Source: Tubulanus polymorphus
Taxonomy: Eukaryota > Animalia > Nemertea
Direction: 5' to 3'
Assembly: GCF_964204645.1 (NCBI RefSeq)
Contig: NC_134027.1
Coordinates: 20,112,560 to 20,176,559 of the forward strand
DNA: 64,000 bases
Shown here: positions 1-48,140 of the stretch, one piece after another
Numbering within the stretch: the stretch's first letter is position 1
Layout: every line of letters begins with the position of its first letter
Program-made: the position numbers and the translations under genes
Notes under the pieces: model-generated
Seen by the model: only the letters and a program-made list of their open reading frames with translations
The model's database searches: none
Told to the model about the DNA's origin: nothing

Positions 1-994
1 ATAATTGTGTCAATATTGAATAATCATTAACCCTTTCATCTCCGTCACATTCATCTCCGTCACATTTCAGTAGTCAATATTTGTGACGGAGATGAAAGGT
101 TTTGTGACGGGGAAGAAAAAAAAACGAAACGGCTTGTTTTCATGGATGATTTAATTTATTTTGATAAGAGATAACAAGTAAAAATAATGTCAAACTACTA
201 CTGATATAGATCAACTGTTTATCGTCTCAAAAACATGGTTCTTACCAATGCTGAAAGGGCAAAACGCTACAGAGAAAAGAAAAAGAACAGTGATCCTGCA
301 TATGTCGAAAAGGAATCGAAGAGAAAACGTGAGGCGTATGTGCCCATCGCGGAACGCTCAAATCGAGAAATCCGTCGTACGCGCCGGCACTGGCGGAAAT
401 TAAAAGAGGTCATGGAATGTTCATCTCCGTCACATAAATTCATCTCCGTTACGATGAACAAAAATAGATTTTCTCAAGTAATGGAAATACTTACGTAAAC
501 AGAAATTGCATGACAAAATAAAATGAAATAAACGCATTTCAGTGACAATGGCATGATTAAATTTTTTGTAAACAGACATGTGAAAATAACTCAATATGCT
601 TAAAACGGTTGCTTACTACAAATTACCATATTCCTTAACTTTGGCCCCAAAATACTGCACTTATGAAAATCGATATAATATTTGGATTACACCTGAAATA
701 TTGTTTTCTTAAAGTACTCTAATGAAGTAATCTTATTATATGGATAGTTCTCGAGGAATGGATTATAGGCAATATTTATTCAATTATGGATAACCGTGAC
801 GGAGATGAATGGGGTCGTGACGCCATATGTTATAGTGACGTCATAGAGGTCAGTTAATGGTCATTCAGCACTGCTGAGCAATGTGAAAGAGTTTTATCTT
901 AAATTACAAAAAATAGTATTTGTTCATGAAACTCTGAAACAAAAATATTGTGAAGTACTAACTACAAGTTTTCATATTTAGCGGAGAATGACCC
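1..994 (+). mobile_element. Deleted/non-autonomous DNA transposon with TCATCTCCGTCAC subterminal repeats (possibly Sola-like); left end probably outside the window
   Basis: Motif TCATCTCCGTCAC recurs in both orientations (36, 51, 83rc, 421, 439, 796rc). Basic ORF 235-498 (MVLTNAERAKRYREKKK) resembles transposase N-termini. Putative right end GCGGAGAATGACCC at 981-994. Superfamily is uncertain. Confidence 0.4.
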
Positions 995-1264
995 TTTTAA
1001 ATGATGTATCATCTTCGGGATGTGTATCTTTCTTTAAAAGAAATCCGTATATTTCTAGACCATTCTACATTGACCCTGTTCTTCCAATACTGAAAAAGCG
1101 TATTTGAGTATCAAAAGGAAACTTCTTTTTATGCCTTAATGAGCTACACCTCCGCTAATGCAGATGTGGAGCTGAATCTGATGTAAATGAGGGCCATCAT
1201 CAGTCGAAACCGCTAGTGGCATTTATGCCTTCTGCTGACCCTTGGGGAATAACGAGTACTGAAT

Positions 1265-4200
1265 CCAGGAAGAAAGCCACTAAATATTTGGATGGATATA
1301 TGAAAGCTGTGGGTACTGGAGTGTGTAATGGGTAGTGTAGTGTGATCTGTGTGCATTTGTGGCCAGCACACAGATCACATTGTTCATTGGGGTTTAGTCC
1401 AGGACTCGCGAGATTTTCAACAACACGGAAGTAACGTGTAACAAGAGCCCCAAGGGGCACAATGGCCAGCCTGTCAGATTTGCTTTTTATAAATGATGTA
1501 ATCTGTGGGTTATATTTATCAATATACACTCCCTGCTCAATATCATTTACATAGTAAAATCGTGTGTTAACACAGACAGCAGGAACGAATGTAATATAGA
1601 AATACTAAGTTATTGTATTGTTCAACGCCCCTGGTGGCCATATACAAAAACCAATGAGCTTGAAACTCACCAAGATCATAGACCATGTCATGAGCTACAA
1701 CTTTCCAATTGATTGTGGTAGCAAAATATGCATAGGTACGATTGTAATATAGAAATACTAAGTTAGTGTATTGTTCAACGCCCCCTGGTGGCCATAAACA
1801 AAAATCAATGAGCTTGAAACTCACCTCGATCATAGAACATGTCATGAGCTACAACTTTCCAATTGATTATAGTAGCAAAATATGCTTAAGTATCAATTAT
1901 GATGTGGAAAAACTTTTTTTCCACCTACGAATGAGTACTGATGACCCCAAGATGGCCGCCAAGTGCGTCATAATTGCCTGGTCAAAAATACCCTCTCGGA
2001 TATAAAAGATCCCTTTCCAAAGAATACCCATTACAAATTGCATTGAAACATGGCACACCATTAGAAAGTACAGTACTCAGAATTCAGGCCAAAATTGACA
2101 TTTTTGGGAACAAAAAAGGTTACAGTACGGCCATCTTGAGTCCGATCTACCCAATTTTTCTCATGCCGATGGGCCCTCGGGGGATACAAATATATACGAA
2201 TGATCAAGGTTATTGATAAAAGTGTCTTCAAAATTTCGTAAAAAGTGCTGATTTTGGCGAACAACAATGGCTGCCAGTCGGCCATCTTGAATCTGACAGG
2301 GCCAGTTTTGGGCCTGGAGATGTGTCTAGGGTAGATACACGTATAAACCAAATATCAAGACATTACCTTGAAGCGTCTTCAAAACTTTGGAACTCTCACG
2401 AACTATCTAGATGGTTATCTCTCGACCTCAATAGCTTCAAGACCCATCCCAAAACAACTTTGTTCCATGCAGCATACCATTAACTCTCGGAAAGCGAATT
2501 GTATTTAACATTTTTTTGGCAGAATAAAATTTGATTGAATTTGCAATTCGGGCACATGGCTAATTAGCATATCAAGGTCATACACCCGATTTGGTAAAAC
2601 CTTTTTTTTCGCGAACCTTGCGCAATTGTCAAGGATGAATTTTCTGTAGAGCAAATAAAAATTCCTCCCAAACACCAAATCAACTAAAGATTTCATAGAA
2701 ATCGATCTTGAAATACAATTTTAAATCTTAAAATAAAATCCGGAAGTAAAACAGTAGACGATACCGCGGATTCACGTGAACACCTGATTTCTGTAAACGA
2801 AATGTTGGTTGTGACAAAATTGTTCAGACGGTTTTAGGTGGTAATAAGTACGGAAACGTAACGACCATGGTTGACTTATTCGATGAAATCAGGCCTATGT
2901 GATATCCAAATTTTGACTTTTTTATTCTCCAGACCTCCCTGATAGAAATAAAAAATTTTGGTGGTACGAAAGTGCAATCACAGTGCCGACGGGGACAGAG
3001 CCGTGTCAGAGATCGGTGGAGTGAAAATTGAGGTGGACGAACACGATGAAGTAGGCTATTGCGCTACTTGAATCACGAAAACTCCCGACGCTTTTCGTTG
3101 ATTAAGTAATACAAATATCATGCAATGGGGTTTTCACAATCTACCGCTGGTATTTACCAGCAATTCAATATCACTCCAAATTCAAAGAAACCTCGAAATA
3201 TCGAACCGGAACACTTCCGGTAGATATCCGCGGTTGCCCAACCGGGAAACTTATTAGTTTCAATAGATATTGATAGGATCCATCATCTTCACCCGTCAAG
3301 GGATTCGAACCCACTAAGCTACAGCCATGCCAGAATCGGGTCGGGCCAATCACAGCGCTTGTAACAAACCACATTAGGCTTCTGTGGAATTTCCCAGTAA
3401 ATGGGCCAATCAGCGAACACGTAGCGAACGCGGAAGTATTGTCGCGTGTTGATACATGAAGTCCATAGTCATGCGCAAAAGCGCCAGTAATGAAATCGCG
3501 ATAATTCACGTGAACAGCTGCTGATATTTTCAGATAAACCAATTACAGGGAAGACACAACTTCCTGATTGGCTGATAAAATTGAAATTTTCCCGATTTAA
3601 CTTTCGTGAAAAATGCAGAAAACATTTTTATGAGACCCTATTTCAAAATTATGCTCGCTACGATTCCGAGAATGGATTACGCTTAAATACGTGATTTGTT
3701 CGAATATGCCCTCACTTGGCAAGCAAAAGAGCCTTTTGTGTGGAAACCATGTCATTTAAATTCGCTCCATTTGTATAGTAATAGGCTCAGCCTACGCCTG
3801 GCCTAATAAATGATGACTTGAATTGCATGACTACCTACCACCCCTCATTATTGTTGGAAAAGTAAACGTTCCGCACTGACTAAAGATTAGTAATAATAAT
3901 TAATAACATTCTAGAAATCGCCAGAATTTTAACTTAGGTTCTATCTCATTTTTATTTTACAATTGCGATTGGTATAATTTTTTTTAAACGGCCGTTAAGG
4001 CTTCATGTTTCGTCTGCAATTCACTGCAAATAGTTACGCAACTACGCACATTTCAGTGTTTTTTGCAGCTGTACACTCAATCGGCACCGTTCGTGACTAG
4101 CTTCACTGTGGGATTATCATTAATTAACATCGCCATATCACATCATCAACTTATATTGTGCCTTAAAACCCTAACAGCCGAAATAATTGAAATGCACACA

Positions 4201-4289
4201 CGATTTCTATCATTGAAAATTGAGAGAGTGGCCGTGTTTGTGTTCTGCTGCTTCGCGTAAATCCCGCGCCGTGGCGCCGATACGTCCAG
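1265..4289. mobile_element. CCAG-bounded TIR-less non-autonomous element, copy 1 (interrupted by a 2365 bp insertion)
   Basis: 1265-1440 and 3806-4289 are the reverse complement of 24462-25123. CCAG lies at both ends (1265-1268, 4286-4289). A 14-bp hairpin is at 1341-1379. Confidence 0.8.
1441..3805. mobile_element. Helentron/HINE-like non-autonomous element nested in the CCAG element
   Basis: Absent from the second CCAG copy, and inserted between A and A with no TSD. Starts ACAAGAG and ends in a decayed hairpin (AGGCTCAGCCTACGCCTGGCCT). Has an internal ~153 bp tandem duplication (1590-1885). Related pieces occur at ~11730-11870, ~52826-53330 and ~53770-53860. Confidence 0.6.
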
Positions 4290-5099
4290 TAATTCCAACC
4301 TAACCAATGCTTTATTTTATTTTCTTTCATTGAAGAAATGTTTTGGTTACTAAAAATTGGTTCCAATTTTGAAACGTAGATAAACTAGTCAGAGAGCTAG
4401 CTATGGGTCATTTCACCTCATAAGCTACAGAAGGTTTGACAGCATAAATCAATCACTTTATTCCTCAGTATTGAAGATGTTGTTGTCAGCTGTGTCAAAG
4501 CAGCTACGTCTAGTGCCCAGAGACCCCCTCTCAAAAAACCTCTTTTGAACTTATCTTCATACCATGGTCCTACATTGTTTAAAACACCATATACTGGTAT
4601 ATGTATATATACATATATATATGTGTGTGTAATCAATGCTATCTTAGTAAAACTGACAAAATTCTCCGCTGGACATCCCTTGTCAGCCCCCTTAAAAAAC
4701 AGTCCCCAGAAGAGAATCCCTCACTCACAGTGCTTTCAGGAAATAAAATCCGGTCTAGTGACAAACCTGCCCTGCAGACTCAGATGTATCAGTGCAAGAG
4801 TACCTGTGAGGATATTGATGGGGATAAAACCGATATAGACAATTCACTGAGAGGTAGGCCCTTCATGCGCCTCAAAACTTCCCATAATTCATCACGATTT
4901 TGGGAACCTAAATACAACGCGCTATGATAGTCATAGCTAGGATCATGGATACAGGCAAATGATGCGTTACAATTCTTTTCGGATTAACAGTTCTATTATG
5001 ATACAGCTTTATGGGACTATATCCATGACACACACTATTGCACATAAAAACTAGGTGATATTGACCAGAGAGGAAATGAATAGTCATTCTCGCTTGAAT

Positions 5100-6524
5100 A
5101 TATACTGTCGTTCTTGCTTGTATATATACTGCGTAATGCCATAATTTTAGTCACTCTTGAAAATGGTTTTTAGAATAAAACCGAAAATTTGAGGTTTTAG
5201 AAATTTTTAAAAGTTTTTATATTTTAAAATCTCTTTCGAACTTGTGATTGTAGGACTTATATTTCATTCGTCTCTAGCGATTTATTGTGTAGTTTTATCA
5301 CGTTATCATGTAACCCACGGATCTAAATATAGTTTTAAAGTTCTTTATCATCAAATTTCCACATCTCATTGGATTATACCGCAAGTAAGAACGAGCATCT
5401 ATCGCAGCACACACCAGTAAAGAAAGGATTATTTTTCTCAAGAACTGCTTTGCCAAAAAATATGTTTTTTCATTTTAAAGGAAATTTCTTTCAACAGATT
5501 TTTGGATTTGCTATGGCTCTCCTATCTTAGCCAACTTATTTTTGGAACATGTTGAAACTGAAATTTAGCCTTTGTATACAGATATCCCTCCCAAAGCGTG
5601 GTTTCGTTATGTTGATGATGTTCTTTGCTTGGTATCCGATAATTTTAACCTTCCCTTATTTTCAGAGTTCTTAAATTCACGTTAACCTAGCCTTAAGTTC
5701 ACATTTGAATGGGAATCCAATAATGTGATTCCTTTCCTGGATGTTCTTATACACAATTGTTTTGATCGTCTCCGTTTTTCAGTTTATCGGAAACCTACCC
5801 ACTCAAATTCATGTTTGCATTTCTTTTTCCTTCACCAGTTTTAATATCAAGTTGTCTGTAACCCAAGGGTTGTTTCTTTGGGCTCACTAGAATTTGTGAC
5901 CCTGAATTCACTGAATCTGAAATTTTATATGTACGCAATTGTCTTTACAAATTAGCTTATCCAGATTACGTCTTAGAACTTGCGCTTCGTAAAGCTAAAA
6001 GGTCCCTTAAACCTAATTTTATCCGTGTTGACTCTTACTCTGTTCAACTAAGTCTCGCATTGTTGTCCCTTATGTCCTGTGTTTAGACAAATTGAAACCC
6101 ACTCTCAAAGCGCTTAACACTATTCAAGTATGATAATAAAATCTCTAGTCATTTATCCAAAAATAATACTTTGTCTAATACTCATGCCAGTGTTTATAAA
6201 ATCCCTTGCCTAGATCGTGATAAATTTTATATAGCTGAAACTGGTCGCTCCCTCAGTATTCGTATTAAAGCACATAAGAAAGATATAATCAATCAAAAAC
6301 CCCAGAGTGCTGTGGCTACCCATGTTTGGGATACTAATGGTCATCAATTTGATTTTAATAATTCTCGTATAATTTTTCTGTCTCACATTATTACCCGACG
6401 TCACATAGTTCAGTCAGCTTTGATAAATTCCCATTCAAATTCCTGTGTCAATGGTAACCTTGGTTTCTCCCCCCATAATAAACTTTTGTCCCTATTCATT
6501 TCCTCTCTAGTCAATATCACCTAG
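5100..6524 (+). mobile_element. Degraded Penelope-like element (RT + GIY-YIG endonuclease)
   Basis: Motifs GFAMGSP, WFRYVDD, IPFLDV and VYRKPTH (5490-5830, with stops and frameshifts). GIY-YIG VYKIPC..D.FYIAETGRSL at 6171-6524. Hammerhead-like pLTR motif near 5155. Confidence 0.9.
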
Positions 6525-6526
6525 TA

Positions 6527-7443
6527 TTTCCTTCAGGATACATTACGTGGGGCACATATTAGAAGTTACCTTAGCTTGGGAACTATACCGCTAAATACTC
6601 CGCTTTTTTGGAATACCCAGTTCCTAAGCGCCGAGGAGGATTTTAAGGCTTTTCAGGCGGAAATACGAAGTCTATTGGAATCGGTAAAGGGCCATCTCGG
6701 CCCGTCAGGAACTCGAGCTTCGCGGCCAACTTTGTCCGAGTCGGAAAACTCCTGTCCTGAGGATGTTCCCCTCACAATCCCTGATCCCAAGGATTTTGAC
6801 GAGTATTCCTTGGAGGTAGGTCCTGGCACGCGTTCGGGGTCTAGGGAGGCATCACCTCCGATCCCATCCGGTGTGACCGATCCCCGTTCGTCAGTAATGT
6901 TCGACCGACCGCCCAGATCTTCGGGCTCAGTCGCCACTACTTTTGACAGTTCGGCGCCGGTGGATATGCCTTTTCGCACACTCATACAGGAGGTTTTCCG
7001 CAAGCATGGCGCCACCATGCCTAAACCTCTTAAGTCCGTGGGTCCGGCAGAGTGTATGGCCTCGTAAGCTGCCCCCGCACAGGACTCTCATGCTCTTCGC
7101 GGTCCTCTGCAGTGAAGGCCGAGTGGACTAGGATCGATAGACACTTGTGGGGTCAGGATCGGCCGACTGGGTTTGCCTATTCTCCGCTGGAGTCCGGGCT
7201 CAAGCAGGGAAAGTTTTTCTCAATGAGCCGATTCCCGGTTTTAGCGCATCCTATTATAGTACGCCCGAGTCGACCGAACGATTGCATGGCTCGGTCGAAG
7301 CGGATGTTAGGTCAATTTTGTCCGCATCCCCGGTCGTCCCCGTCCTTAACATTCAAATGCCTAAGGCGGGGGTGGTCTCTTCCTTGTCATTCCTGGAGAA
7401 TATCACAAGAATCAGGAGTTTCCAGGATATGGCCTTGCTGTGA
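6527..7443 (+). mobile_element. GC-rich retroelement ORF1-like remnant (possibly DIRS gag)
   Basis: Abrupt GC shift and Ser/Pro-rich broken ORFs (6576-7067, 7147-7443). No diagnostic motif recognised. Confidence 0.25.
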
Positions 7444-7689
7444 TTGTGGTACTTATATTTCACACTATGGAATATCCCTCAACTGATGCAGTGGGACAGG
7501 GGCTGCTTGCGATAATTTTGATAGGTTTGTTGAGACGAAAGGTGGAAGAGATACCCTGCATGACACTGTCGGTATAACTTACCAAATTCTCACTGAAACA
7601 GATTATCTGCAGGAGACAAACAGAAGAAATACAACAGAATAAGTGAAAAGCAGCAAGAAAAGACGTCGACTCCATGAACCAAACGGAAA

Positions 7690-8250
7690 TTGCCCCTTAC
7701 CGGACCAAGCCAAAATAGAAAGTCTATTTCTTAGAATTGAATGACCGGAAGAGGTCACTATTTAAGAATAACAACAATGATGCATGGAAAAAAGACATCC
7801 TTTGGATGATGGACATCCACTTCCATTATGAAACCCCTATGTGGGTTGGATGGAATGCAAAACTGCTCGTAGATAACAGAGTAAAAAATTAAAATTTGGT
7901 ACATGCCCCAAATTAACCTGTCGCCAACCTCAAATTCAGTTGTGATAGAAACGATGGAACGTTCACTAGCACTAGCAAATGTATGTGGCAAAGAATCCAT
8001 CTCAGTCACATAAGACCTGGCTTCAGAAAAAGTTGCTATGCAGATCCAGGCTATGGAAACACCGAGAGTTGATAGGATTTTTGTTGCCTTGGGGTCTTTC
8101 AATATTGAACAAGCATTCTTCTGTGCCATTGGAAAGATTATTGCAGAATCTGGTGGAGTGTATGTATTGGTTGAATCTGGAGTACTAGTAACTGGATCAA
8201 TTAATGGATTCATCAAAGGGAAAAAATTACAAAAGATGCAAGAGACTATA
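7690..8250 (+). pseudogene. DDE transposase fragment, Chapaev/CMC-like
   Basis: PMWVGWN, INLSPTS.SVV.ETM, IFVALGSFNIEQAFF.AIGK.IAESG and GSINGFIKGK, with stops. Family assignment is from memory. Confidence 0.55.
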
Positions 8251-8699
8251 GGGCTATAATATCCAATGAACTAGAAGCCATGGAGAAGAAAGGAAAGGAG
8301 GAAATATTCAATTTGTCGAAAGAAACATGTGAGATATTAATAGAGCATGAATTGTACTATAACACCAAACAACCAGAAACTGATTATAATAATGCACTTT
8401 ATCTTCAAACCTAACACCATGTAAGGATGGCACAATTTAGCTTTGCAGTTCCTGATCCAGCAGGCACCCAACTAAACTTGATTAAAAACTTAACAGGACA
8501 AATGTGAAAATCCCTAGTGAAAATCAATGATTGATTTACCTATTAAAATTTTCTTGCATTATTTCATTTATTTGTTCATACCATCTATTCATACCATAAT
8601 ACATAGATTGACTTCAGCAAAATGGATGATTTACAAAACAACTGCAAGATTTAGAGTTGCATCATGCCCGAACAATGAAGGATCTTGAAATACGTAAGT

Positions 8700-9075
8700 A
8701 CCAAAGTCGTAGTTCCACCACATGAGAAAATACGATGCTACACTGGGGTGGCAAAAGAGACTGAGACTTGAATAGAAGAAGCTGCAAGTGTCATAAAAAC
8801 TCGAAAGATTGAACAAGATGAGGAAGTCGACTTTTGAAGAACATATCTAGACGGACCCGCATGTGAGGAGTTGCGTTTTAAAACTGATGTAGTAACAGCC
8901 TTGTCATTGTTGGAGGCACTGAGAGATGTGTTTGGCGAACGCCATAGTTTGACGACGCTGAAAAGAAATTTTTATGGGAGACAACATAAGGAAGGCGAGT
9001 CACTCCAAGCACACTCACATGCACTGATGGAACTGGCAGGAAAGCTCTATCAAAGAGACTCAGCTGTTAATCGGG
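8700..9075 (+). pseudogene. Gypsy gag (PNMA-like capsid) fragment
   Basis: LDGPACEELRF...ALRDVFGE...FYGRQHKEGESLQAHSHALMEL, a major-homology-like motif. Confidence 0.7.
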
Positions 9076-9440
9076 TAACTCCTATAATCATATCACAACT
9101 TCTGTGACAAAAGCTTATTGTTTAATAATCCGTGACATTTTAATGCTTCTTAGGACAGCAGGACAAAGGATAGAATTCCGTGACCGTCTGGCAAAATGCG
9201 GGACAGTTGACAGCTCTGCATATGCAACAAATTCACGCCCTTCAAAACATTAATATATTTGGACTCCAGTTAATCCCTGATTCGGACCAAAAACTGAGAG
9301 AAACTGCTGAAAATTATTGGATTAATTACTTTAACACTTTGACACCGAACAGCTTTGTGACAGGTGACAACCACTCACTCAAATGCCATCTATATCACTG
9401 TAACAAACAAACACACACAACTCACTCGCTATAAAGCTAA
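9075..9440 (+). pseudogene. Penelope-like GIY-YIG C-terminal fragment
   Basis: IFGLQLIP...LRETAENYWINYFNTLTPN matches the RE..WI..L.TL.P.G motif. Confidence 0.6.
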
Positions 9441-9649
9441 CACCCGCCCAAACAACGTATCACCTGGCTCGAGCGCAACTGCACCACCACTTAAACACAC
9501 AGATATGCGCCCGAAACCAGTTGGACAAACGGCGGGTCTATCAACATATAAATCATTCTCTAATAAAACCGTGGAAAATAGGCTAATATTTTTTTGTAGC
9601 CTGAGCACCAGGGGTGCTTATTCCTAACCTCTAATCCTAAAACCTAACC

Positions 9650-11440
9650 CTATGATTCCTGCACTGACACTGACAAAGGCAACACCACTTGCACGCTGCC
9701 GCAGACGTCTGGATGGAAATGGTCTCGACTGAGTTGAGAACACATTATGGGCGCATTACAGGAATGATCCTCAGCCAGCCTGTCTGTCTGCAGAGGATAT
9801 CGACCTGACATGGGCCCATAAGAATTTCGGCTCCCGTTTGAGCCCCGGAATGATCTGGTTTTTTTAAGTTTCAATCAATTTCCGCTTGAAATTTCGCGGT
9901 GAGGCTATGTCAGGAGGTAACCGAGATTGCCAAAGATTCGTCCGCCGCCGAGACCAAGATTGGACAGCCCGCGAGGCCGATCGCACCACTCAGCAGTTCG
10001 TCGGCGTCTCTCTCTTCTCATTCCAGGTCTCTGTCTCTATACAGGTCACCAGGGCACCTACTGCCTGCACCAGTGAGAAATCCGACACCAGCATTGAGCC
10101 CTATGGCGCCCCAGGAAGTTAACCATCATCTCATTTCTAAGCGGAAGACAATTGAGTGGAGTCCGCCTCCAACCCGGTGATCCATTCTCGTGATTGGTGA
10201 CTCAAACCCGAGTAACATCACATCAAACCGCAGTCCGGATGACGTCCAGATCGAGAGCTTCCCAGACTGCAAGACGACCCATCTCACCGACCTGATCAAC
10301 GCTGTACCGGAGCGCTGAGATCGCCCAGATACCATAATCATCAGCTTTAATCAACATCCGTGACAACAACTTCCAAGGAACCTCCAAGAAGACTACACAT
10401 CGCCTCGTCAATTCTGCAGTCCGAAAATGCCAGCATTCGTTCGTCTACTTCGTTCTACTCAACACAACCAGCGGACACCAGCAGTTTGCCAAAAATCAAC
10501 GAATTTCCTCGAGAATCAGGACAATGTCACCGTGATATGACCAATCGATGATCGACATCTCAAGAGTTGTAGGCGATGGGATCCACTGGGACCGTGGTAC
10601 AGCTTACACCCTGCTGGACCACTGGCTCAGTGGTTTAAAGTGTTAGTAAAACCAACGGGTCCACTATTGGTGAGGATCGGTATCAACCGAAATTAACTAA
10701 CGTTTCTCTAATTTCTGCCATTTTCAGATCCGATGAACAGGCACCAAACCAAGCGCAAAGCGTCCCGGTCACCCCTCTCGGTAGCCCGGTGGAAAACCTC
10801 ACACGTTCACTCCGTCTAAGTCTTGCGCAACATCAGTTACTCCGAAAGGGCCTCACCTATTGCCCAACTCAGAGAATCCGTTCTGATGCTGCCGTGACCG
10901 AGTGCACCAAGGGAGTGTGCCGATTCAACTGGCTATTGAAACTCGACCATCACTTCTGAGAGAAACCGTGTTTCCGTCTGTCCAGCAGTTGGGCTCCGGA
11001 CACCATAGAATCAGTAATCGCCTAGTTCTGCAAAGACGCGCACAAATTGGCTCAACAAACCAGGAATATGCGTCGCGAAAATGATAACCTCACTGAATAG
11101 GAACGCGAAGCCCTCCAGCAGCCGCGTGACAACACTAATATTATTCATAAAAGCTGCCGATAAGGGTTCCGCTACGGTAACAATGGACCGCGACGACAAC
11201 ATCCACGAAGCCAGCTATCTGATCTTGAGTATTATCAGCCAATGCCGCTATCACGTCAGAATTCGACTCCAGTCTCGGAACACTTCAACCAGATCAACCA
11301 CACCTGCCAACACTTTCGGGTGTACAGTCTCAAACACCTACCAGGCTTGACAAGACCAATGCGCGAAGCAGCCCAACAAGATTGGATACAACGACTCACC
11401 ACGAACACGCCCGAGACATCAACATCTCGTAGGCCGCCTC
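9650..11440 (+). mobile_element. Internally deleted Penelope-like (Neptune-type) element with an upstream SGNH/GDSL esterase ORF
   Basis: ILVIGDSN at 10184 and DGIHW at 10575. Splice acceptor at 10727. VENLT..LLRKGLTYCPT and IKAADKGSATVTMD follow, then a jump to GIY-YIG (PVSEHFN...REAAQQDWIQRL). Confidence 0.75.
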
Positions 11441-12109
11441 ACTACAACAATCAATTCATACTTTTATTTACAGGGATAACCTGCTGCCGTGCATTAGTGG
11501 GGTCTCCAAACCTTCAGTTTGGTCCCCTTACCTCTATCTCAACACTTAACCCTAAGGCCATATAAAATAAATTACTTGATTCTCATCAGCACCCGCCCCG
11601 AATTTAGCGGCCGCCTGGAGTTTTCATTAACATTTTATATACAAAATATAAAACTACCACCTCGGATAAAAAATCACACTTACAACATTGTCAATACCAA
11701 TAATTTACGTAATACAATTGTGTTTTCATAAGTAGCACAGACAGCGTCTGGAGCTGGCAGGAACAAATACCTCAGATAAATCTTTTCCCTTGGTCTCATT
11801 GATTTGAATGCGGAATAGAATTAAAATCTCTGAAATTTGCTCAATAAAACAAAATTGAATTGGATTTGATGCTTTATTTGTGAGACCCTCCACTGTCTGA
11901 GAAATTTTCAGGCCCGTACCAATCTTCGAATATTGGGACTCGAACTTGTGAAGAAACTTGTTTTAATATGACTTGTTGCAGTAAATAGTGTGTTATCGAT
12001 TTTTAGCGTCTGCTGAACTGAGAGCAGAGACGTTTAGTTTGTGCACGTGCTATTGATAGATACAAGTCAATGTAGATTTATCTTATTCAAACATAAATGT
12101 ATCAGAACC

Positions 12110-12500: not shown

Positions 12501-12599
12501 AAGTACCCTTAAATATCTTATTCCTTAGTGACCATAAAACACTATAAGGACAACTCTACGGACTTAGACGAAGACGTTGTCGATATCAAGGCAACCCTA

Positions 12600-12800
12600 G
12601 TGGATAAATCAGAACAAAAAGTGGATGAATCAAAACAGAAAGTGGATGAATCACAACAAATATCGGATGAATCACAACAAAAAGTGGATGAATCACAATA
12701 AATATCGGATGAATCACAATAAAAAGTGGATGACTCACAATAAATATCGGATACATCACACCTTGTTGATACCAAGGCAAACCTAGCGGATGAATCAAAA
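12600..12800. repeat. 21-bp minisatellite GGATGAATCACAA(C/T)AAA(AAGT/TATC)
   Basis: At least 7 units with a 21-bp period are directly visible. Confidence 0.9.
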
Positions 12801-12959
12801 CAAAAAGTGTTTGATGTTTTGCTTCATGCAGAATCACATGATGATGGACTGAGTGACATCGTACGTAGTAACAGAAAGAGGACCACGCACACGATTATTA
12901 GTACGTAATGCAGGACTGAAGTTTCTGCAGCCTATTGTCTTATGTTTAGTTTTGATAAC

Positions 12960-13490
12960 AGATGAATTAGTACATTTTAGTACAGATGAATTATTCTCTG
13001 ACGAAAAAGACTATTCAGATGATAATTTGATTCCAAAAGCAAACACTCATTCATCAGATACGTCATCCAACTCCAGTCCCGAGCCGAGAGAGGAGATAAG
13101 TTTGTCTGTGAGAAAGAAAAAAAAAGTTGTGAAGAAACGTACCCCACCACTGCCACACTTTGAAATTCCATCGCGCGAATCCCATGACTGTCCGGTCAGG
13201 GACTGCTCTTCTCGAGTGAAGCAAATAAGCAGGCACATGAAAACCGTACATAAGTGGTCGTCATACCAGGCCGCAAATTGACTGTTAGTATTCATACAAT
13301 ATGGAAGTTGTATCCTAGACAAACCAACCCAAACTCGATGTAATTGAATTTTCTTTTAAGGTGAATTTAGCCAACGTACCTGTCGAAACGAATAGATGAC
13401 AATGGGGCACAAAAGCCTAAATCCTGCACCTGCCGTTATTGCTGTGTAATGTTTGTGCGGGCAGACCGCCACGAAAAGAAATGTAGATTC
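12960..13490 (+). pseudogene. Degraded zinc-finger ORF, probably TE-derived
   Basis: Acidic/basic linker, then CPVRDC..VKQISRHMKTVHKW (C2H2), and a second CRYC...RHEKKC near 13430. Confidence 0.4.
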
Positions 13491-13548
13491 GGTCAGTTCA
13501 TGTGTTCTTTGTTTTTCAGCTAGCTATTATAATAATATAATCTAATGA

Positions 13549-32270: not shown

Positions 32271-32336
32271 TGTTTTTTTCTCATTGTAAGCAAATAGTGT
32301 TTTTTCTCAATGTCCCCACTGGAAGCAAGTATTTGA

Positions 32337-32681: not shown

Positions 32682-32770
32682 TACTACTACTAGTGCTACT
32701 AATAAAATCCCCGCCATTTAGTCTAGTCATTGCAGCCAACTCATGATTTGAACTATTTATCATTTCTAGT

Positions 32771-37862: not shown

Positions 37863-37959
37863 TAGTTCATACAATGATGTCATAAATTGAAATAACTATC
37901 AGGATATTGACAAATAGCTTGAGCTTAAAAATACATGACAGTACAATAATTGCTTACGT

Positions 37960-38300
37960 AGATGCTTGCGTTTATAAAATACCTTGTTTGGATTGTGACA
38001 AGTTTTATTCAGGTGGAACTGGTCCCTCTTACAGTGTTCGTATCAAAGAACAAAAGAATGATATCATCAATCAAAAACCTCAATGTGCCGTGGCTGTGGC
38101 TACCCATGTTTAGGATAATAATGATCACAGACTTGATTTTAATAGTTACATATAGATTTTCTGGGAGTGTCCAACAATGTTGCCTGAGCCACATAGTTGA
38201 GTTTTAATAAATTCACACTTCAATCTGTGTCAATGGTATCCTTGGTATCTCTCCCTATAATAAACTTTTGTCCCAGTTCATTGAACTAATAAACAATCAG
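37960..38300 (+). pseudogene. Penelope-like GIY-YIG fragment, same family as 6171-6524
   Basis: VYKIPCLDCDKFY.G.TG...RIKE.K.DIINQKPQ, similar in DNA to 6190-6500. Confidence 0.8.
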
Positions 38301-38379
38301 ACTGCAGTGATGGCAGAAAGTTGGTGCACAAGGTCTGCATTCAGACAGAGAAACAGGCCAAATGCACCTGCAGAGAGAA

Positions 38380-38780
38380 TCAAGACCATACAAAACAACT
38401 CCAATTGGTTCAAAATGATGCTGCTAGGCTTGCACCTAGCCGTAGAGAACATTATCACCCATGTTTTAAAAGATTTGCATTGGCTTCCTGTCTCATACCG
38501 TTCGGACTTGTTCCTCACTACTTATAAAAGCCTTAAAGGTCTTTGACCATCTTATCTCAATGAGCTTTTAGTAGAGTATGTGCCTGTTCGTCAACTCTGC
38601 TCCACAAAAAATGGTTTGTTTTTCAAGACAATTTTCGAAAAAGAAAGTTGGTTCCTAATGCTTTTAATTCTTAAAATAGGTACTACAGTGTTTAATGTTG
38701 GGGTTGGTGTTTTATGTAAAGCGCAATGAATCTTTTTTTAGAAAAGTAGCGCTAAAAAAAAAGCATATTTTATTATTATT
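38380..38780 (+). mobile_element. CR1/L2 LINE 3' fragment
   Basis: QLVQNDAARL, ITHVLKDLHWLPV and a short (ATT)n tail. Confidence 0.75.
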
Positions 38781-38839
38781 CTCATCTATAATTCATTATC
38801 TCATCTATATCTCATCTGGATGAGACTTGGTAAAATGCA

Positions 38840-39370
38840 GGATCAGTTCCAGATAAGATATCGTTTGATACAAAAATAAAAAGCAAAAAGATGCTATTCT
38901 TAGTGGACTGCCGTGCAGTTAGAAAGAATGTTGGCAGCACTAGGAGAGATTCACTGATTCAGTATTCAAATCTGGTGGAAAAAATGCTGACCACCATGAC
39001 GACATGAATGGAGACAATTTTGAGCTGTGGTTCACAGAAAAATCATTACCGAAGCTGCCTCCAAAAAGTGTCATCATTAAGGACAACACCAGCTATCATT
39101 CTGTTTGAACTGAAGGTAGACCAGTTTCTAATTCCAGCATAGAAGACATGCAAGTCTGGCTCAGTTCAAAATTAATTTCTGGGTCCCTGATTTGCCGAAG
39201 CCAGTTCTATACAAAAATATTCATCAACACAAACTGCGATATATATCCCATAGAATAGATGTTTTGGCTGAAGAAAATTTACACCATATTTGAAGACTGC
39301 CTCTGTAATATTGTGAACTGAACCCCATTGAGATGATCTGGGCTAAAATCAAACTGTACGCCTCAGCCAT
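38840..39370 (+). pseudogene. Tc1/IS630-like (DDE_3) transposase remnant
   Basis: DHHDDMNGDNFELWF...SVIIKDNTSYHS and RLPL*YCELNPIEMIWAKIK. Confidence 0.75.
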
Positions 39371-40049
39371 CAATACCACAATTTGGATGTCATTTAAAAC
39401 CCTGGAAGGCCCACAGTGACACTGGCGTTGCATAAATTTTGAGAGGCTGTGAAGACCATGTTCAAACATAATTTTCACTACCTTTTGGGCCCAATGTGAC
39501 ATACGTGTTACAACAATAGCGACATCTGTTGATAAAATCTTGAAATAATTTTTTATGGCAAGTGAGTCAACATGGTTGCCTCCATGGAATTTTTCACAGT
39601 CAAAAATTAGCAACTTTGGACGCATAATACTGCATGTTACAGGTATGTATAGCTCGTAATTTGATATCATTTGAGTGAATAAGTTAACGTAGAATACGGG
39701 GAACATCAGTGAGTGGCTGAACAAAAAGTGAATATTTTTTCCCAACGTATGTAACACCCGTGTTACATTGGGTCTTACTGGCAAATCATATTTTAACCTG
39801 AAAAATGTTATTTTGTGTTATTTAGGTGATCATGGCTACCAGAATAGAATAATATGATTTATTTTTCATCATCATGTCATGCAAGTTACAATATAGTTAC
39901 GTTAAACATAGTTTTTACAGACAAAGGATGAGTAATCCTAGTAATCCTAATCGACGCCAAGTTATTCCCTTGAGCGAGGTTCTACAAGAGCTAGATATAA
40001 GACTATAATAACAGTGACGTCATCGATAATGATAGTAGTCTTGCACAGA

Positions 40050-41885
40050 AAATGCCGTGCAAAGAAAGTGAAGTGTGGTTGAAAGAGAACAGCTTTTCTT
40101 CAGAAATCGTGGATCAATTCAAAGGTAACTATCATTTATTAATCGCCTTCTTTGAGCGTAATAGGATTTAACAATATTCGTACTAAAGAAAGAATTAACA
40201 GGCCTACTCCGAATGATCAGCTGAACATTTTCATATCATTAGATAGCACTTGCTTTCTAAGGCCAAGCCAGGCTTAATGATATGAAACACTGATACGCAC
40301 ACTAAATGATATGAAAATATTTCTTGCTGTTTAATAAGAGAATTTCCATTTTAATTTTTAATTTTAAACTATGAAAAAACAATTAATGCGTAACACATTG
40401 CAGTAAAAGTTGACGTGAAGAGCTGGTGTTTTATATTGCTTACTGAGGCTAATAGGCTATAGGTCTATATGCTTTCTGAGGCGATTTTGACTCACTTAAT
40501 CAACTTCAGTGTCAACTCTTATTGCACCATGGCATTTTCAAAAACAGGATACAATTCAGTTCTGAGTCGTCGCAAGTTGTGTCATATTTTGCTTTCTGAG
40601 GTACTATTTATAGTGGCGGGTTATATTTTAGGGCGGGTTATTGATGAATATAATATATATATATATATATATATATCTAATTCATCAATAACCCGCCCTA
40701 AAATATAACCCAGGGATGTTAAGTAGGTAAGTAATGATGGCAGATAGAATTCTACCCAAGAAAATTGATAGTTGAAGTTGTTATTTAATTAAAAATAATT
40801 TGAAATTAATTGAGAAATTCTAAATCTAGGTTGTATATAGCTATCATGCACTACAATGAGAATGCAGGAAGAGTTCAAGCAGAAACCCGGAGCGGTGAAA
40901 AACGATGGCTCGTCTATTATCCAAAATATAAAGAAGGCCATACAATTTGTGAATGAAAACTGCTTCGTGCTTATTGTCGATATGGTACGGCTGGCGTGAC
41001 CGAAGAAAATAGTAGAATAGGCCTATATACACTGACAACGTTAGTCGTTTCAGTTCTATAAAATGTTATATCTATACGTCAATAAATATATGTGCCTGTG
41101 GCTTAAGCTTGCAATTTTAAGTCTTCTTTAATTTATGAAATTTTTTCTTAGATGACGTCCAAGCATTATCTGCATTGGTGGGTATGCTACACCGACCAAC
41201 CAAAAGGAAGGGAATTCGATCTGATGGTGGAACAAGTAGAATTGAAGCCATTCAACATCTTATTCAGCATAAGCCAGTGAGTTAAATTTTTGTTTTGGCA
41301 ATAGCAGGTTCATTGGTACTTGTCATTTTCAAAATTGTAACTAATCTTCCTAATTCACTGCCCAGAGAGAAGATGTGAAATCATGCCGTTGTACTTGTAA
41401 AAGTAGAGGTGATACATAGAGGCATGATTGCATTCAAATAGTATATTTCTATTTGCCTTATTAAGTAACATTGAGTTGCAATAATATAACCTGTATATTG
41501 TAAGTGATGGACTTTTCAGTCCTTTTACAAATGGGTCAGCCTCAAGTATTACAATTATCTAATACTGGTAATAATTTGTATTGCCAGGTATTGGCAAGAA
41601 ATTTGTTGGACACCCTGTTTGTGTTTTATTACCTGTAAACATTGTTGTTTACTTTTTAACTTTTTATTCACAGGTTGGTACTAGTCTGGAAGGATTTGTG
41701 ACGACAAAGAATAATCATTTTAAACAACCATTCTTACTGCATATTACTGATCAACAGGACCATAACCAATAGTATCTGGTTATTGAATCACTTGCCATCG
41801 AGGCTAGTGATTGTGGTGTAAACGCTATCGATCTCTGGTTTAAAGTACATTATGTGTTTAATTTGGAATATAGTCTTCCAGTGGC
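40050..41885 (+). pseudogene. SAMD3-like (EnSpm/CACTA accessory-protein-like) spliced remnant
   Basis: Exon-like pieces VWLKENSFS...FK|gt (~40075-40123), 41151-41277, and from 41673 QPFLL...AIDLWFKVHYVFNLEY, with a stop. Confidence 0.5.
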
Positions 41886-41914
41886 TGATGTTGGACTTTA
41901 TCTTGATATGTTGA

Positions 41915-42625
41915 TAAGGTTGTTGTTTGCAGATGACTCACAGTTATACATGGTCTGCAGGGAACCAAATACTGCTGTACCAATAATTGAAAAATGTGTC
42001 GTGGATATACGTGTTTGGATGAGAGATCATCTCTTATTTCTAAATGATTCAAAAACTAAAGTTATTTTATTCTCATCCAAATTCAGAAAAGTGAATAATG
42101 TTTTTAATGGATTATGCGTAGGTGATTCCACAATATTTCTCTCTTTAACAGTACGCAACCTTGGATTTTATTTTGATAGCTTCATGACAATGGATAATCA
42201 TATTAAACATATCTGTAAAGTGGCATCATTTGCATTATACAGAATTAGTAAAATTCGATCATTACTCGATACAGCCACTACTGAAAAGCTGGTTCATTGT
42301 TTTATCACGTCAAGACTAGATTATTGTAACAGTTTATTACTTGGAATTACAGATTATCAAATGTCAAAACTTCAAACCATCCGAAATTCAGCAGCTAGGT
42401 TACATTGGTTACCAGTTTGTAAACGTATACAATTCAAAGTTTTACTTTTGGTTTTTAAATGTATTCATGGTCTAGCACCTCCTTACCTTAGCAATTTAGT
42501 GTCTCTGTACAAACCGAGTCGTTCATTAAGGTCAGCTAATATGTTTAAACTGTCTCATGTGTCATGCAATACAATTTTTTATGGTAATCGAGCTTTTGCT
42601 TGCGCTGCCCGTTTTATGGAATCAT
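41915..42625 (+). mobile_element. CR1/L2 LINE RT C-terminal fragment
   Basis: FADDSQLY, LFLNDSKT, VRNLGFYFD, SRLDYCNSLL, LHWLPV and YGNRAF. Confidence 0.9.
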
Positions 42626-44373
42626 CTAGTTGTCCCAGGCGCCAAACAAATGCCCGCATCCCTCCCCGCCACGATGCTGACCCTTAGGAGGGGGTAGCAT
42701 AATTATCCTGTTACAAATCAAAACAATTCAATTCAATCAAATTATATTTGTAAATAAAATTCTTACGGAAAAAAAGAAACCAGGGATAACCCCCAAACCG
42801 AACGGACTCACCTTTATGAGAGTGAATACTCCCTAATATCCTAATTCCCAGATTTTTACGGCGAAAAAATCCAACGCGTTCTACTGCGAGAACGCCAAGA
42901 AAAAAGATGACGGATTTCGCCGGTGGCTAAATGCAATACCGCAGGGCTGGGTCGTATAGAAAAACCATTGGCGATAAATCCAAATTTAGAAAATATTGGC
43001 AAAAACCATAGGAAAGGGTACAGTACTCGACGGAAATATAAGCTGTTGTATTATTAGTACTGATAAATGATTTTATGAGTCCCCTTTGCCTAATAAAATT
43101 AAGGTCTGTAAACCTATGTTCCTGTACATATCCGATGAAGACACTGTAGTGACGTAACTTAGTACATGTATGAATAAAACTAAAAGTTAGTCTATAAAGT
43201 GTCAAAGATATTATTTTGTTTAAAGCTTGATACTGGTCTTGGTTATACACATGTAGACTTTTGTGTGTGTCATGTATATTGGTATGAACAAATTAAATAA
43301 AATGTTGTAAATATCTTCTTGAAAACGAATTGCTTTGTGTTTTTATTATGATTATTCAGTGGATTTGAGGTCATAGTTCAATCACTCCAACTGGAGGCGA
43401 AATGCATTTAGCTTTATGTTCAAGTCGATTAACCAATACAACGGTTCATATGACTTTAAATTGGAGTTAACTGGAAGCGAAAATTAACGTAGGATTTTCC
43501 CCTTAAGTTTAAGGCATTTCACCCGAAGAAAGGTACCAATGACCAGAATTGAAGTAAAACGCCCCTAATCTTAAGTTGAAAATTTAACTTTAAGTTAAGG
43601 TTATTTTTTCAACTTTAACAGTAAAGGTATTTTACCTTGCCTGTCGGTTATCACTGAGCTGGCTTTTGCTTAAAGGTAAAATTATCCTTATTAAAGTCAA
43701 TTCGCCTTTAAAAATTTCAGAGAGAACAGCCAGAAACATGCAGATGGTGATAACGACTCTGAATCAGATACTGATGACTTGGTAGGCAAACATTACCCAT
43801 CATTGGATATGGATGTCCATAAATAAAATAACCTGCAGTGACGGATCCAGTATGCCACATGAATAGCTATTGGGGTAGTCAACATTTCTCCTGAAACTGC
43901 TTATTATGAGCATTAGCATGGCCATCTTGTTTTTGTCTGCAGTATACAAATTTCAAAAGATTTTCATAAAGTCGTTATCATATTGAATGCTGTTCTTTTT
44001 CAGGACTCGGGCATGGCATATGTAGTTATAGGACTGGATTACAAAGTTGTAACATTGTAATACCTTATGGAAATTAATGAATTGTATTTGAAAAGAATAC
44101 ATTTAATTAGTTGGTTAATTTTGGTTTTTTATTTCACCCCAAAATATTCGTCCGTTATCATTAAGGCCCAACGTGACACATTTTTCCCAAAATTTCCCAA
44201 AAAAATGTTTCAAAAATTGAAAATGAGACTAGCATTCGTTATTTTGATGCTTCAGAAGTAAAAATACCTAATACCATAATTTTCACTCTTGGGCCTTCCA
44301 GGGTTTTGAAGTTCTGTTGATGGAAATGATTAATGATGTCACTGCAGCAGAGTAGCTAAAATATATTAATCAG

Positions 44374-47363
44374 GGGCCGGTTTCACAAAGCGTAATTAAC
44401 CCTTAATTATGATTAAATCACTAATCATGATTAAATTATCATTATTTAATCAAGTTAGGTGTTTCACAAAACGTAATTAACTTTAATTATAATTAAGTTA
44501 ATTACAAAATTTAATTCTCCTCTAGAGTGTAATTAAACCATTTAATCATCATTAGTTTATCATTAAAAACAAAAAGCTGCAGATATTATTCATGGAATTT
44601 GGTGTTTATTAATTGATGACGGCAATTCCTACACTTATTCAGTTTTTCAGATTGTTTGGCTCAAATAATTTGGATTTTTTGCCTTTTGTAAAATGTCAAT
44701 ACTCTAAATTCTATTGATTTATTTTCAAACGTCCTATGTTTTTGTCAGCACGACCACCACATACTTAGAAGTATTGAATTAATTGATTTTGTCCATACAT
44801 ATGATAGATTTCTGTCAGTAGAGTACATATCCATGGAGTAAGTGTTAAAAAGTGCTAATCACTGCTCGGAAATAAACCCCATTTACGAGGATTTTATTTT
44901 GCTGACTGGAGGTGAGTTTCTATTTAAAAACTTTTGAGACATCTTGCTAAGTTTTTCCACTGGTTCCTGAGACCTTTCAGAGCAATCTTTAACTCCCAAA
45001 GGAGTGAATTTCTCTTTTCCTCTAAACAAGTAGGGATTTCAGGTTGAAAATTTCTATGTGTCCTATGTGTCTTTCTAATAGCTTAAAATGAAGAAGGGGA
45101 TAGCATAAGCATACAGCACTTTACAGAATCAAAATTGGTCAAGCGGTTCAAAAGTTATAAGCAATCTAAGGGTGGAAATTTGGGGTATTTTTGTCATTCG
45201 ATTGCGCAATACACTCTAGTTCATTTCCGATGAAAGTATCAGACAGGAAGTGTCTAGGTTTTGCTGCTTTTTAGCCACATAAAGGAATTAAATTCAACAT
45301 TAAAACCAATATAACTCCGAGAATTTTTATCTGTTTAAAACCAAACTTGGTCAGTATGTTGTCTATACAAAGTTTGTTTAGATTCATGTAAGTAATTGCA
45401 CAAATATGTAAATTAGGCTAATTTGCATACTAATTATCTAATTAATACCCACTTCTATAACCATTAACACGCAATACTATAGTTTATTTCTCAAGATAAA
45501 TGATACTTAAGACATGGAATATCAATTTTGAGATAATGTACCGGAGATATCGTGCATCAGGGTGATACCGATTACCACGGTAACCATAAGGTAAGTATCA
45601 AGGCGGCCATCTTGAATCTAATTAACTACATCTTTAATGTATTTAGTTGATTCGATATGGCCTTATAGACCTTTATTATTTGAAATAACTAATCTTAGTG
45701 GATAAGTTCAATGTTTTAAAGCCTTCTGAAATAAAAGATACTAATAATATCATTATATTTCAGATACTCACTTGCCGCAGAAGAATAGGATAAAGCGTTG
45801 AAGAGATCTATGTACTACATGGTTTTCCGAAATTAAATCAAATTGAAATGAATGGAAAAGCCTTTGTTTTTCTTTAGAGATCCCTAGGCCCTAACAGATT
45901 TACCCATGAAATATCTATATCATGATATCTCAAATTGAGGCTCGAGGAATGGCGGCCATCTTGTTTTGCGTCGATATTTCATCGGAAAGTCAATTTTAAA
46001 AAAGTATGTCATGTTTGGTATCTAATTAAAGGTCTCCTTCTAGGCAAGTCATTCGAATGAAAAAGAAAATTGATAATATAATCCTCTAGAATATATTCGA
46101 TTAACCATTGGTTGGTGGGTATTTTAGGCCTAGCAGCGGCAGTTATTTAGCGAAAGGGTCGACAATTGGAATTGAAAAACCATGAACAAATGAATAACAA
46201 CTGCTTTTCAGGGGGATATCCTAGTATTCAAGATGAGATGATTACCTAAAGGTGAAGCAGATAGGAAAAATAAAATTTCTTTTTAGCAAAAAATGAGCTA
46301 AAATTTAGACAAAACTTGGATTCTTGTGCAAAATACTCAAAGTTTTTAAATTGGGTAGGCCTAACCATTATTCGTCTTATATATTGCCGATTTCGTAATA
46401 AAGTATGAGTTTAATGAGTGAAAGTGACGTTTTACTTGCTAAATTGACATTTAGAGTGGTAAAAATGAACCAGGAAGTGTTTTGATTAATCAGCTGGCAG
46501 CCGGTGTGAGCCGGCAGTGACCCGGATGTAAACAATTTGAAGCGCCTTGCCGACTTTAGGTCAAAATCCGCGAAAGACTACTCAATCAATCTTAAAAGTA
46601 ATAATTGAAAACAATATATAAAGTATCTTATTTTATCATGTAGTAGAGTGCAAGTTGTTAAAATTATTAATTTTAGCGTATGAGCACTTTGAAGTGTGTT
46701 TACGACGTTTTCCGAGTGATACAGGGCCTACCAAAACTTGCACGCACCGACATGCTCTACTTGAAACATGTTCTTAAAATATTCTGAGGTCAAATATCCA
46801 GCCAATCAGCAGCCGGCTCGCGGATTTGACCCAAAAAATTGCATGCGTTATTCACGTGTTTGAAAAATGCATGAACAAACATGGCCGCCATCTTGTTTCC
46901 TAGAAATGAGCCGACGCGCGCCGAACTACGACTTATTGCTCCGTAACTAGGCAAGATACACTCATGAAATTTACACCACACTAAATAACCGGTAAATTGA
47001 GTATACTGAGCAAGTTTGGCTTCAATCGGATATAGAAAACGTTTTTTATGAGCGATTGAAAATTTGAAGCGTGGAAAACGCTAATTATGACACATTTTGA
47101 TCACGTGACCTGAAATCCCTAAAACAAGGAAGGTTGTTCCTGTTGTTGATGCTTGGACAGCAAATGGCTGTCTAAAGTTCCGCCATTTTGATACAGTTAA
47201 ATTGTAATTAAGTTGCCTAATTATGTAATTAGTTAATTTTGTAATTAAACCCTTTCGTGAAACCGAATTTTAATCGTAATTAACTAATCATGATTAAGGA
47301 AATTTAATCATGATTTAGGTCTTAATTATAATTAAAGTTAATTATGCTTTGTGAAACCGGCCC
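44374..47363. mobile_element. Non-autonomous PIF/Harbinger-like element
   Basis: TIR GGGCCGGTTTCACAAAGC at both ends, 3-bp flanks CAG/CAT and TAATCATGATTA subterminal repeats. Confidence 0.8.
45031..47121. mobile_element. Nested non-autonomous TIR element with 7-bp TSD
   Basis: 14-bp TIR TAGGGATTTCAGGT and AAACAAG on both flanks (45024-45030, 47122-47128). Confidence 0.8.
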
Positions 47364-47589
47364 CATGTCTTTAAAGTTGAAGATAAAACAATCAAATTGG
47401 TTAGGAATCTTAGATACTTAGGAGACGAGCCATTCATTATTCATCTTGGAGAGAGTGATACAAACCAGTCAGAATCTGATGCGACAGGGGAGAGTCCTGG
47501 GAAATGGACTATGATTACAATATAAACATCCTTGGACAAATTAGGCAAATTTCGATGAGCTCTCCTTCCGGACCTAAAAATACAGGGCG

Positions 47590-48140
47590 ATCAGAACCTG
47601 GCAACGAAAAGGGGCCATACCTCATTTGGTCCCCCTGAAGAGCAATTGCTTGATAATAAGTTTTTCAAGCTCGAACATCGAGGAAAGCAATCACGTGACT
47701 GCCAGGAGTGTCAACTGAGCAACTGGCAACAAGACAGTTTTACTGCAGCACCAGCATTGACCAACCCGACTAGCATCCAGTTCAAAGAGATCAGAAAAGA
47801 CACTGATTCAATTGACTTATATTTCACCCTTCTATACACTGATTACGTCGTACATGTGTAAAATAAATTTCAAGTTTAGTACCTGTAAATTTTTGAAAAA
47901 ATTGACAACCTGAAGAAGCCTGCCAAGTGAAGATTACTGACGAAAGCGCAAGAAAAAGGGTTGACCCTCATTTAGTCCCCCTGAAGAGATTGCTCAATAA
48001 TAAGTTTAACAAGCTTGAACATGAGAAATGCAAACACGTGTCTGCACCGTGTGTAGAAACCAAGAAGTGGGCAACAGTCGAAGCGGCGCCTGCGTTGACC
48101 AACTGGCCATGCATCCAGTTTAATGCTTTAATGATTACCA
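47590..48140 (+). pseudogene. Two diverged piggyBac C-terminal Cys-rich domain remnants
   Basis: Paralogous segments ~47600-47860 and ~47950-48140 with P..RLL.NK...C.VC...HPV.CF.DYH pieces across frames. Confidence 0.5.

Follow-up and report, generated by a model that had tools for sequence, protein, structure and literature searches.

How does one intron of a housekeeping gene come to hold coding remnants of many unrelated transposon families, all pointing the same way? The question is raised by a 64,000-nucleotide (nt) stretch of the genome of the nemertean Tubulanus polymorphus (contig NC_134027.1, positions 20,112,560 to 20,176,559; hereafter the window), in which positions 1-51,229 are a single intron of IPO9, the importin-9 gene, lying between coding exons. 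Our searches confirmed that the antisense bias of the recognised coding pieces in this intron is complete and extends to all transposon classes. The reading that we favour, at even confidence, is that the intron is an antisense trap for transposons of every class and a candidate feeder of silencing PIWI-interacting RNAs (piRNAs).

The IPO9 gene and its giant intron

The exons were mapped by tblastn with the window's own 1037-aa importin-9 (P0001), which was reached via the open reading frame (ORF) at 55787-56128. Thirteen exons on the minus strand, running from 63998 to 51230, encode residues 215-797 of the 1037 and are separated by 12 introns of about 0.23-2.6 kb (edges approximate); the closest homologs of the protein are lophotrochozoan, with Lingula at 64%. 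The giant intron (1-51229, minus strand) begins with the donor GTAAGT at 51229 and has its acceptor past the window edge, and its length is at least 51.2 kb. Residues 798-1037 found no match in the window, whether the query was P0001 or the C-terminal 245 residues from each of 40 homologs. Sequencing run X4 provided a 2335-nt contig that matches the IPO9 exons with 10 CT..AC joints and extends 831 nt beyond 51230; positions 44001-51229 have no match to that extension, the length of which would be accounted for by 240 codons and a short 3' untranslated region (UTR). The records do not describe run X4 as RNA; it is taken as such from this spliced contig, and its sample differs from that of run X1, the source of the DNA contigs. 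It is because residues 798-1037 lie beyond the region, and because the spliced contig skips it, that 1-51,229 is one intron.

The earlier note on this DNA had proposed either a giant intron or read-through from IPO9, and only the intron survives. Downstream read-through is ruled out, since residues 798-1037 lie past the region and the spliced contig passes the last exon; the pile does not have the position beyond the host's last exon that marks a read-through (downstream-of-gene) cluster. Minus-strand transcription by IPO9, which the note had also claimed, is borne out by the minus-strand exons and the spliced contig, and RNA polymerase II (Pol II) should traverse the entire region on that strand, given a correct assembly. 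With the spliced contig and this presumed passage of Pol II, the region appears to have the one-strand transcription, here minus, of a uni-strand piRNA cluster. The giant intron is at least 20 times as long as its neighbours, the other 12 introns in view all being below 2.6 kb, and therefore the gene has grown locally rather than by a gene-wide heterochromatic expansion.

The link to IPO9 would be incidental if the pile were a minus-strand transcription unit of its own, or if it were not contiguous with IPO9 in some haplotypes, as a polymorphic block or mis-join. No contig bridges the region, X4 and X1 come from different samples, and a human cluster overlapping CHD1L was interpreted as an independent unit in the part of the report available (PMC11615739). 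We nevertheless consider this explanation very improbable. A mis-join is opposed by a single-copy DNA contig that spans the exon-intron edge (51027-52145), by another DNA contig that matches 47364-48219 with zero differences and by the complete 1037-aa IPO9 protein on record from a 27.8-Mb contig.

Orientation of the coding remnants

All stop-to-stop ORFs of at least 45 aa in 1-51,229 were compared with Pfam, both strands alike. Transposon families were matched by 12 of 207 plus-strand ORFs and by 0 of 227 minus-strand ORFs; the 12 represent five elements (a Gypsy-type gag, a Gmr1-like Gypsy, two piggyBacs and a Tigger), and junk matches numbered 3 (plus) and 2 (minus). The giant intron contains 17 plus-strand ORFs of at least 150 aa, from 10 elements, and two on the minus strand, where 100 shuffles gave means of 0.26 (plus) and 0.39 (minus); the small IPO9 introns have no ORF of this length. 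Both of the minus ORFs overlie plus-strand remnants as antisense shadows. Among the 20 minus ORFs of at least 100 aa, 16 likewise lie over plus-strand remnants, and the four outside annotated pieces (1203-1604, 3174-3542, 24376-24699 and 42930-43292) have no Pfam match. Homolog libraries of hAT and of long interspersed nuclear elements (LINEs), searched on both strands, matched the plus strand only. The one-way layout described in the earlier note is thus upheld by the Pfam and long-ORF counts, and so is its reach over DNA and RNA transposons, with hAT, piggyBac, Tigger, LINE, Gypsy and Penelope-like pieces all on the plus strand. Dense transposon fragments antisense to transcription, the other mark of a uni-strand piRNA cluster, are present.

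Reading through minus-strand stops (as X) in 48 frames over the gaps gave no transposon family by Pfam. The same method gave 0 transposon matches in 30 plus-strand frames with obvious pieces; Pfam is therefore insensitive here, badly decayed minus-strand pieces may be missed and the minus-strand negative is weak. A Harbinger-like minus-strand remnant suspected by eye at 44372-45073 was not supported, with 0 Pfam matches in three frames and, for one frame against 1.84 billion proteins, a single match to a spurious repeat protein. Self-blastn showed that a non-coding segment at 1261-4277, in two parts (1261-1444 and 3804-4277) with a nested insert between them, is the reverse complement of 24492-25127 at 91-94% identity. 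This segment lies both ways, and therefore the bias tracks coding content.

How surprising the bias is depends on the number of events and on the null. The two dozen remnants of the earlier note are reached, at about 25, when by-eye calls are included; about half of the pieces are named by eye only, the labels Chapaev, DIRS/Ngaro, Kolobok, SAMD3, env and L2 are family names that we presume to apply, and tool-supported insertions number 12, of which nine are strong and a Tc1-like piece and two Penelope-like ones are weak. The note's chance figure of 2e-6 treated 20 insertions as independent and the two strands as equally likely, whereas events are nearer 12 to about 25 and the right null is intronic antisense bias. 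For 12 of 12 on one strand, p is 2.4e-4, 0.008 and 0.07 with an assumed antisense background of 50%, 67% and 80%, and for 26 of 26 it is 1.5e-8, 3e-5 and 0.003, respectively.

An antisense excess of long terminal repeat (LTR) elements and LINEs in introns is general, according to the available parts of three reports (PMC3088655, PMC2911107, PMC4353498), and has the same direction relative to the host gene; it is a genome-wide excess, strongest for LTR elements and LINEs, whereas in the IPO9 intron the bias is complete among recognised coding pieces. The intron could accordingly be the tail of the distribution of such ordinary bias, driven by poly(A) and splice signals and met because very many windows are read. 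At a background of 75-80% the 12 supported insertions give p = 0.03-0.07, which this explanation can accommodate, but about 26 pieces give 0.0006-0.003. The motif counts, a crude proxy for working signals, do not favour it either. The IPO9-sense strand of the giant intron already carries 58 AATAAA (43 expected; 1.13/kb vs 1.0 in small introns), and flipping adds none: in 14 element segments poly(A) hexamers number 31 as oriented and 29 if flipped, splice donors 26 and 21, and acceptors 17 and 12. The sense orientation is not richer in terminating or splicing motifs. We regard this explanation as improbable, and ordinary selection against sense insertions, the alternative named in the earlier note, finds no support in so far as it would act via these signals.

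Content and history of the intron

Coding remnants make up 26.4 kb, or 52%, of the giant intron (by-eye boundaries). Families are mostly present once each, the Gypsy pieces have no paired LTRs, and coding cores adjoin within a few bases (6521/6525, 38282/38285). The ages span from intact elements with terminal inverted repeats (TIRs) and target site duplications to heavily decayed pieces, in a single orientation throughout. The cut-and-paste elements, four strongly supported and a weak fifth, are all on the plus strand, as are all coding pieces below.

The order of events is clearest at 26839-30731, where a Penelope-like element (Atlas 0.96/0.95; in its Atlas clusters 18-55% of members have HTH_animal or GIY-YIG) is split in frame by the full-length piggyBac 2 (27034-30136; TIRs, TTAA duplication, DDE_Tnp_1_7 E 1e-41). 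The Penelope-like reading frame resumes across TTAA, and piggyBac 2 therefore entered afterwards, directly as DNA and with the orientation of the Penelope-like element. It retains a putative GT-AG intron (27590-27795), within which lies a 16-bp inverted copy of its left subterminal sequence (27047-27062/27661-27676), and a 168-bp TA-rich microsatellite occupies 29433-29600 in its 3' part. The Tigger/pogo element (35320-37864) is likewise full length, with TIRs, a TA duplication and CENP-B_N, HTH_Tnp_Tc5 and DDE_1 (E 6e-31) domains. The frameshifted piggyBac 1 (23555-26049) has DDE_Tnp_1_7 in four ORFs and is broken at about 24468-25118 by the copy of the non-coding segment, with profile position 167 on either side. 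This 650-bp segment has CTGG at either end and its inverted copy (1261-4290) is bounded likewise, which suggests templated repair or circle capture, not transposition. The hAT transposase (14460-16350) consists of a 412-aa ORF followed by a frameshifted 3' part; it has 93 homologs, of which many carry PF14291/PF05699, and tblastn matched it on the plus strand only.

Among the retroelements, the Gmr1-like Gypsy (18533-22790; SCAN, Integrase_H2C2, p58_C and RT_RNaseH_2 at E 8e-6) has the order SCAN gag, integrase ahead of a mostly deleted reverse transcriptase (RT), and an RNase H piece; no long direct repeats, and thus no paired LTRs, were found in it, and the env-like label of the remnant 3' of it was given by eye. 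A Gypsy-type gag remnant lies at 8520-9104 (PNMA E 4e-5, Retrotran_gag_2 E 0.009). The 3' part of a LINE RT, which we take to be of the L2/CR1 group, lies at 41830-42684 (35 related loci, plus strand only; RVT_1 E 0.026). At 5400-6521 there is the 3' part of an RT with an endonuclease (RVT_1 E 0.012), presumably Penelope-like from its motifs, which shares 76% nt identity with 37962-38282 and has a 38-bp inverted repeat on both sides (5046-5083/6492-6529); a further Penelope-like piece is possible at 4440-4930. At 9174-11560 a 3' end, an esterase-like stretch and an N-terminal part, labelled Penelope-like by eye, are possibly one partial tandem, and 9174-9431 resembles 11164-11562 (E 1e-4). The block at 37886-39800 consists of abutting pieces: a Penelope-like endonuclease end matching 6096-6521 (E 5e-26), a LINE 3' end (tblastn E 1e-8 to LINE homolog L008) and a weak Tc1-like transposase (DDE_3 E 0.14). 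The minus ORF 39224-39817 that overlies the Tc1-like piece has no Atlas match, and an exact 18-bp inverted match, near chance, links 39396-39413 in this remnant to non-coding 44290-44307.

The other coding pieces were named by eye. They are a decayed DNA-transposon-like remnant with repeated motifs of 14-16 bp at 230-1000, presumably Chapaev-like and with no Pfam match; a DIRS/Ngaro gag-like piece with two ORFs (180 and 150 aa) and no useful Pfam match at 6525-7483; a decayed transposase-like remnant at 7700-8300, overlain by the minus ORF 7761-8270; an acidic repeat with a zinc-finger-like remnant and a 21-bp tandem array at 12520-13500; and a short Gypsy-RT-like piece with a Cys-rich remnant at 16582-17900. 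Further along, 31497-33601 holds, one directly after another, an Ngaro-like gag, fragments resembling Gypsy and an esterase-like ORF of 285 aa (the long ORFs there measure 257 and 285 aa, and Pfam gave no useful match), 40001-41282 holds SAMD3-like and Kolobok-like remnants (SAM_3 E 0.005, below cut-off), and 47400-48154 holds two similar piggyBac-like Cys-rich tail remnants with 84% mutual nt identity. Moderately long frames at 2740-3800, 26248-26634 and 34562-34831 have no Pfam or by-eye assignment.

Two non-coding TIR elements lie near the donor end: 44373-47364, recognised by its TIRs, has no coding evidence and holds a nested non-coding TIR element (45031-47121), and 48272-49476, recognised by sequence and inverted repeats with contig loose ends at 49476, holds a nested miniature element (48532-49006). 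DNA contigs of the former's families reach a depth of about 400-900 where unique IPO9 DNA has 40-50, and these families are multi-copy and young; some contigs carry the outer element without the nested piece. The 44-50 kb zone as a whole reaches 10-20 times single-copy depth, with single-copy DNA between elements. Given this depth, one giant multi-copy element holding all the pieces was considered. It was rejected, as depth shifts from one element to the next, the DNA at 47364-48219 has single-copy depth and TIRs of their own mark the high-depth parts. At 44840, 48536, 48987 and 49247, and at the joint without the nested element, most of the X1 DNA depth differs from the window and X4 contigs do not; this difference within 44373-50670 could reflect RNA from copies like the window's own, although the two samples differ.

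Pieces of very high-copy non-coding repeats lie in the same orientation in the giant intron (1450-2735, 11690-11877) and in a small one (52827-53860). Near-perfect long palindromes of miniature inverted-repeat elements occur at 60043-60291, 61070-61294 and 40618-40711, the first two at very high copy. No tRNA genes were found, and a transposon library sought from viral contigs gave 0 loci. The CpG ratio (0.82 in the giant intron, 0.65 in small introns, 0.45-1.04 by element) was uninformative.

Possible roles of the intron

If the intron is an antisense trap, it would have grown past 51 kb by gathering antisense coding pieces of many families. Antisense insertions would be retained since they supply guides, deletion would then trim them to coding cores, and sense insertions would be lost. 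Part of the intron RNA would have to evade normal decay, by retention, an internal alternative end or a separate unit on the same strand, and the rescued RNA would reach the piRNA machinery and be cut into piRNAs. We favour this reading because it explains the size reached by this one intron, its density of coding sequence and its sampling of mostly one piece per family, and because intronic DNA transposons in cichlids were reported to have no orientation bias (PMC4353498, available part) yet the cut-and-paste elements here all lie one way. That a host transcript can serve as an antisense trap is described in the portion available of PMC13226689.

Several points weigh against the trap. The X4 contigs that cover 44-51 kb match multi-copy families and give no strand or level, and so they do not demonstrate RNA from the IPO9 intron itself. 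According to the available parts of the respective reports, insertions in fly 3' UTR traps require cytoplasmic export (PMC13226689), piRNAs of a hamster locus come from exons and not introns (PMC11615739), intronic DNA transposons in chicken and fly do show antisense bias (PMC2911107), and Capitella yielded no large cluster (PMC8915122). Published host-gene traps thus use exons or read-through, and an intronic one must assume the retention, internal end or separate unit just mentioned. In Trichoplusia ni (T. ni), uni-strand clusters were reported to be 57% antisense (PMC5844692, available part), counted over all insertions and not over coding pieces; validated clusters can therefore be far less biased, and complete bias alone is no cluster signature.

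The layout can also be explained without piRNAs being made from the intron. A sense insertion would expose IPO9 pre-mRNA to nuclear PIWI or related surveillance, because the pre-mRNA would then be able to pair with antisense piRNAs, or would resemble transposon mRNA in being A-rich. IPO9, an important gene, would be silenced and the insertion lost, while antisense copies, which escape such surveillance, accumulate in a tolerated sink. Such surveillance would apply to every class with an mRNA, spare non-coding pieces, act independently of poly(A)/splice asymmetry and require no export of intron RNA, so that it accounts for the all-class bias equally well as the trap. In the available parts of the reports, Drosophila PIWI silences reporters in fly cells when an intron that is spliced efficiently carries the target in one orientation but not in the other (PMC4238361), and annelid intronic transposable elements associate with gene-body methylation (PMC11292947). 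However, the sink gives no reason for a single intron to exceed its neighbours at least 20-fold, for coding cores to fill half of it or for most of its families to be represented once, and nuclear PIWI silencing in the nemertean lineage is an assumption. We judge the sink a serious explanation, less likely than the trap. The two models are not mutually exclusive: a piRNA source would likewise select against sense copies.

Taken as a trap, the intron resembles known systems in part. Flamenco and flam-like uni-strand clusters of Drosophila likewise hold nested, truncated antisense pieces under a long one-strand transcript, but their bias is described as driven by Gypsy only and they are dedicated loci (PMC10643416, available part). 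In the IPO9 intron the bias is not specific to Gypsy, since hAT, piggyBac, Tigger/pogo, Tc1-like, LINE and Penelope-like pieces are co-oriented; the host is a housekeeping gene, and the piRNAs are predicted. In mosquito core clusters (10.1101/2022.08.22.504762) and mammalian piC-DoGs (PMC11615739) a protein-coding gene likewise drives transcription of antisense invaders, but there, by the parts available, they lie 3' of the last exon, whereas the IPO9 pile lies between coding exons and is normally spliced out. The Tirant insertion in the 3' UTR of Fs(2)Ket is an antisense insertion within a host transcript and a piRNA source; traps of this type are, in the part of PMC13226689 available, single exonic insertions and transient, whereas the pieces in the IPO9 intron number about 25 and differ widely in age. 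The lophotrochozoan Capitella teleta has piRNA loci in large introns, which are given as under 20 kb and lowly expressed in the available part of PMC8915122, against at least 51.2 kb here. The phrase 'intronic piRNA cluster', a link of IPO9 or importin-9 to a piRNA cluster and, in a wider search, any account of a locus of this kind in a title or abstract were absent from the literature searched, which covered few subscription papers; the available parts of PMC6128900 and PMC12506671 contain nothing on intronic clusters.

The giant intron of this housekeeping gene is real, and so is the fully antisense layout of its recognised coding pieces, whatever their class; the intron's role as a trap is that of a candidate, unproven. 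The host-gene piRNA traps cited here use exons or read-through since their precursors must reach the cytoplasm, and a large all-class intronic trap would need a different route. We suggest, tentatively and as a bolder claim, that a lophotrochozoan master transposon library resides in one IPO9 intron, with the mRNA and an antisense guide precursor of more than 50 kb for all classes made from the same transcript. Every cell that expresses IPO9 would then have this immunity switched on, and some means of rescuing the intron for the piRNA machinery would have to exist. The IPO9 intron offers unique junctions for mapping. If it is a trap, lophotrochozoans would gain a master locus, although large clusters were not detected in Capitella; if it is a tolerated sink, the locus would be a record of nuclear small-RNA surveillance shaping an intron across all transposon classes.

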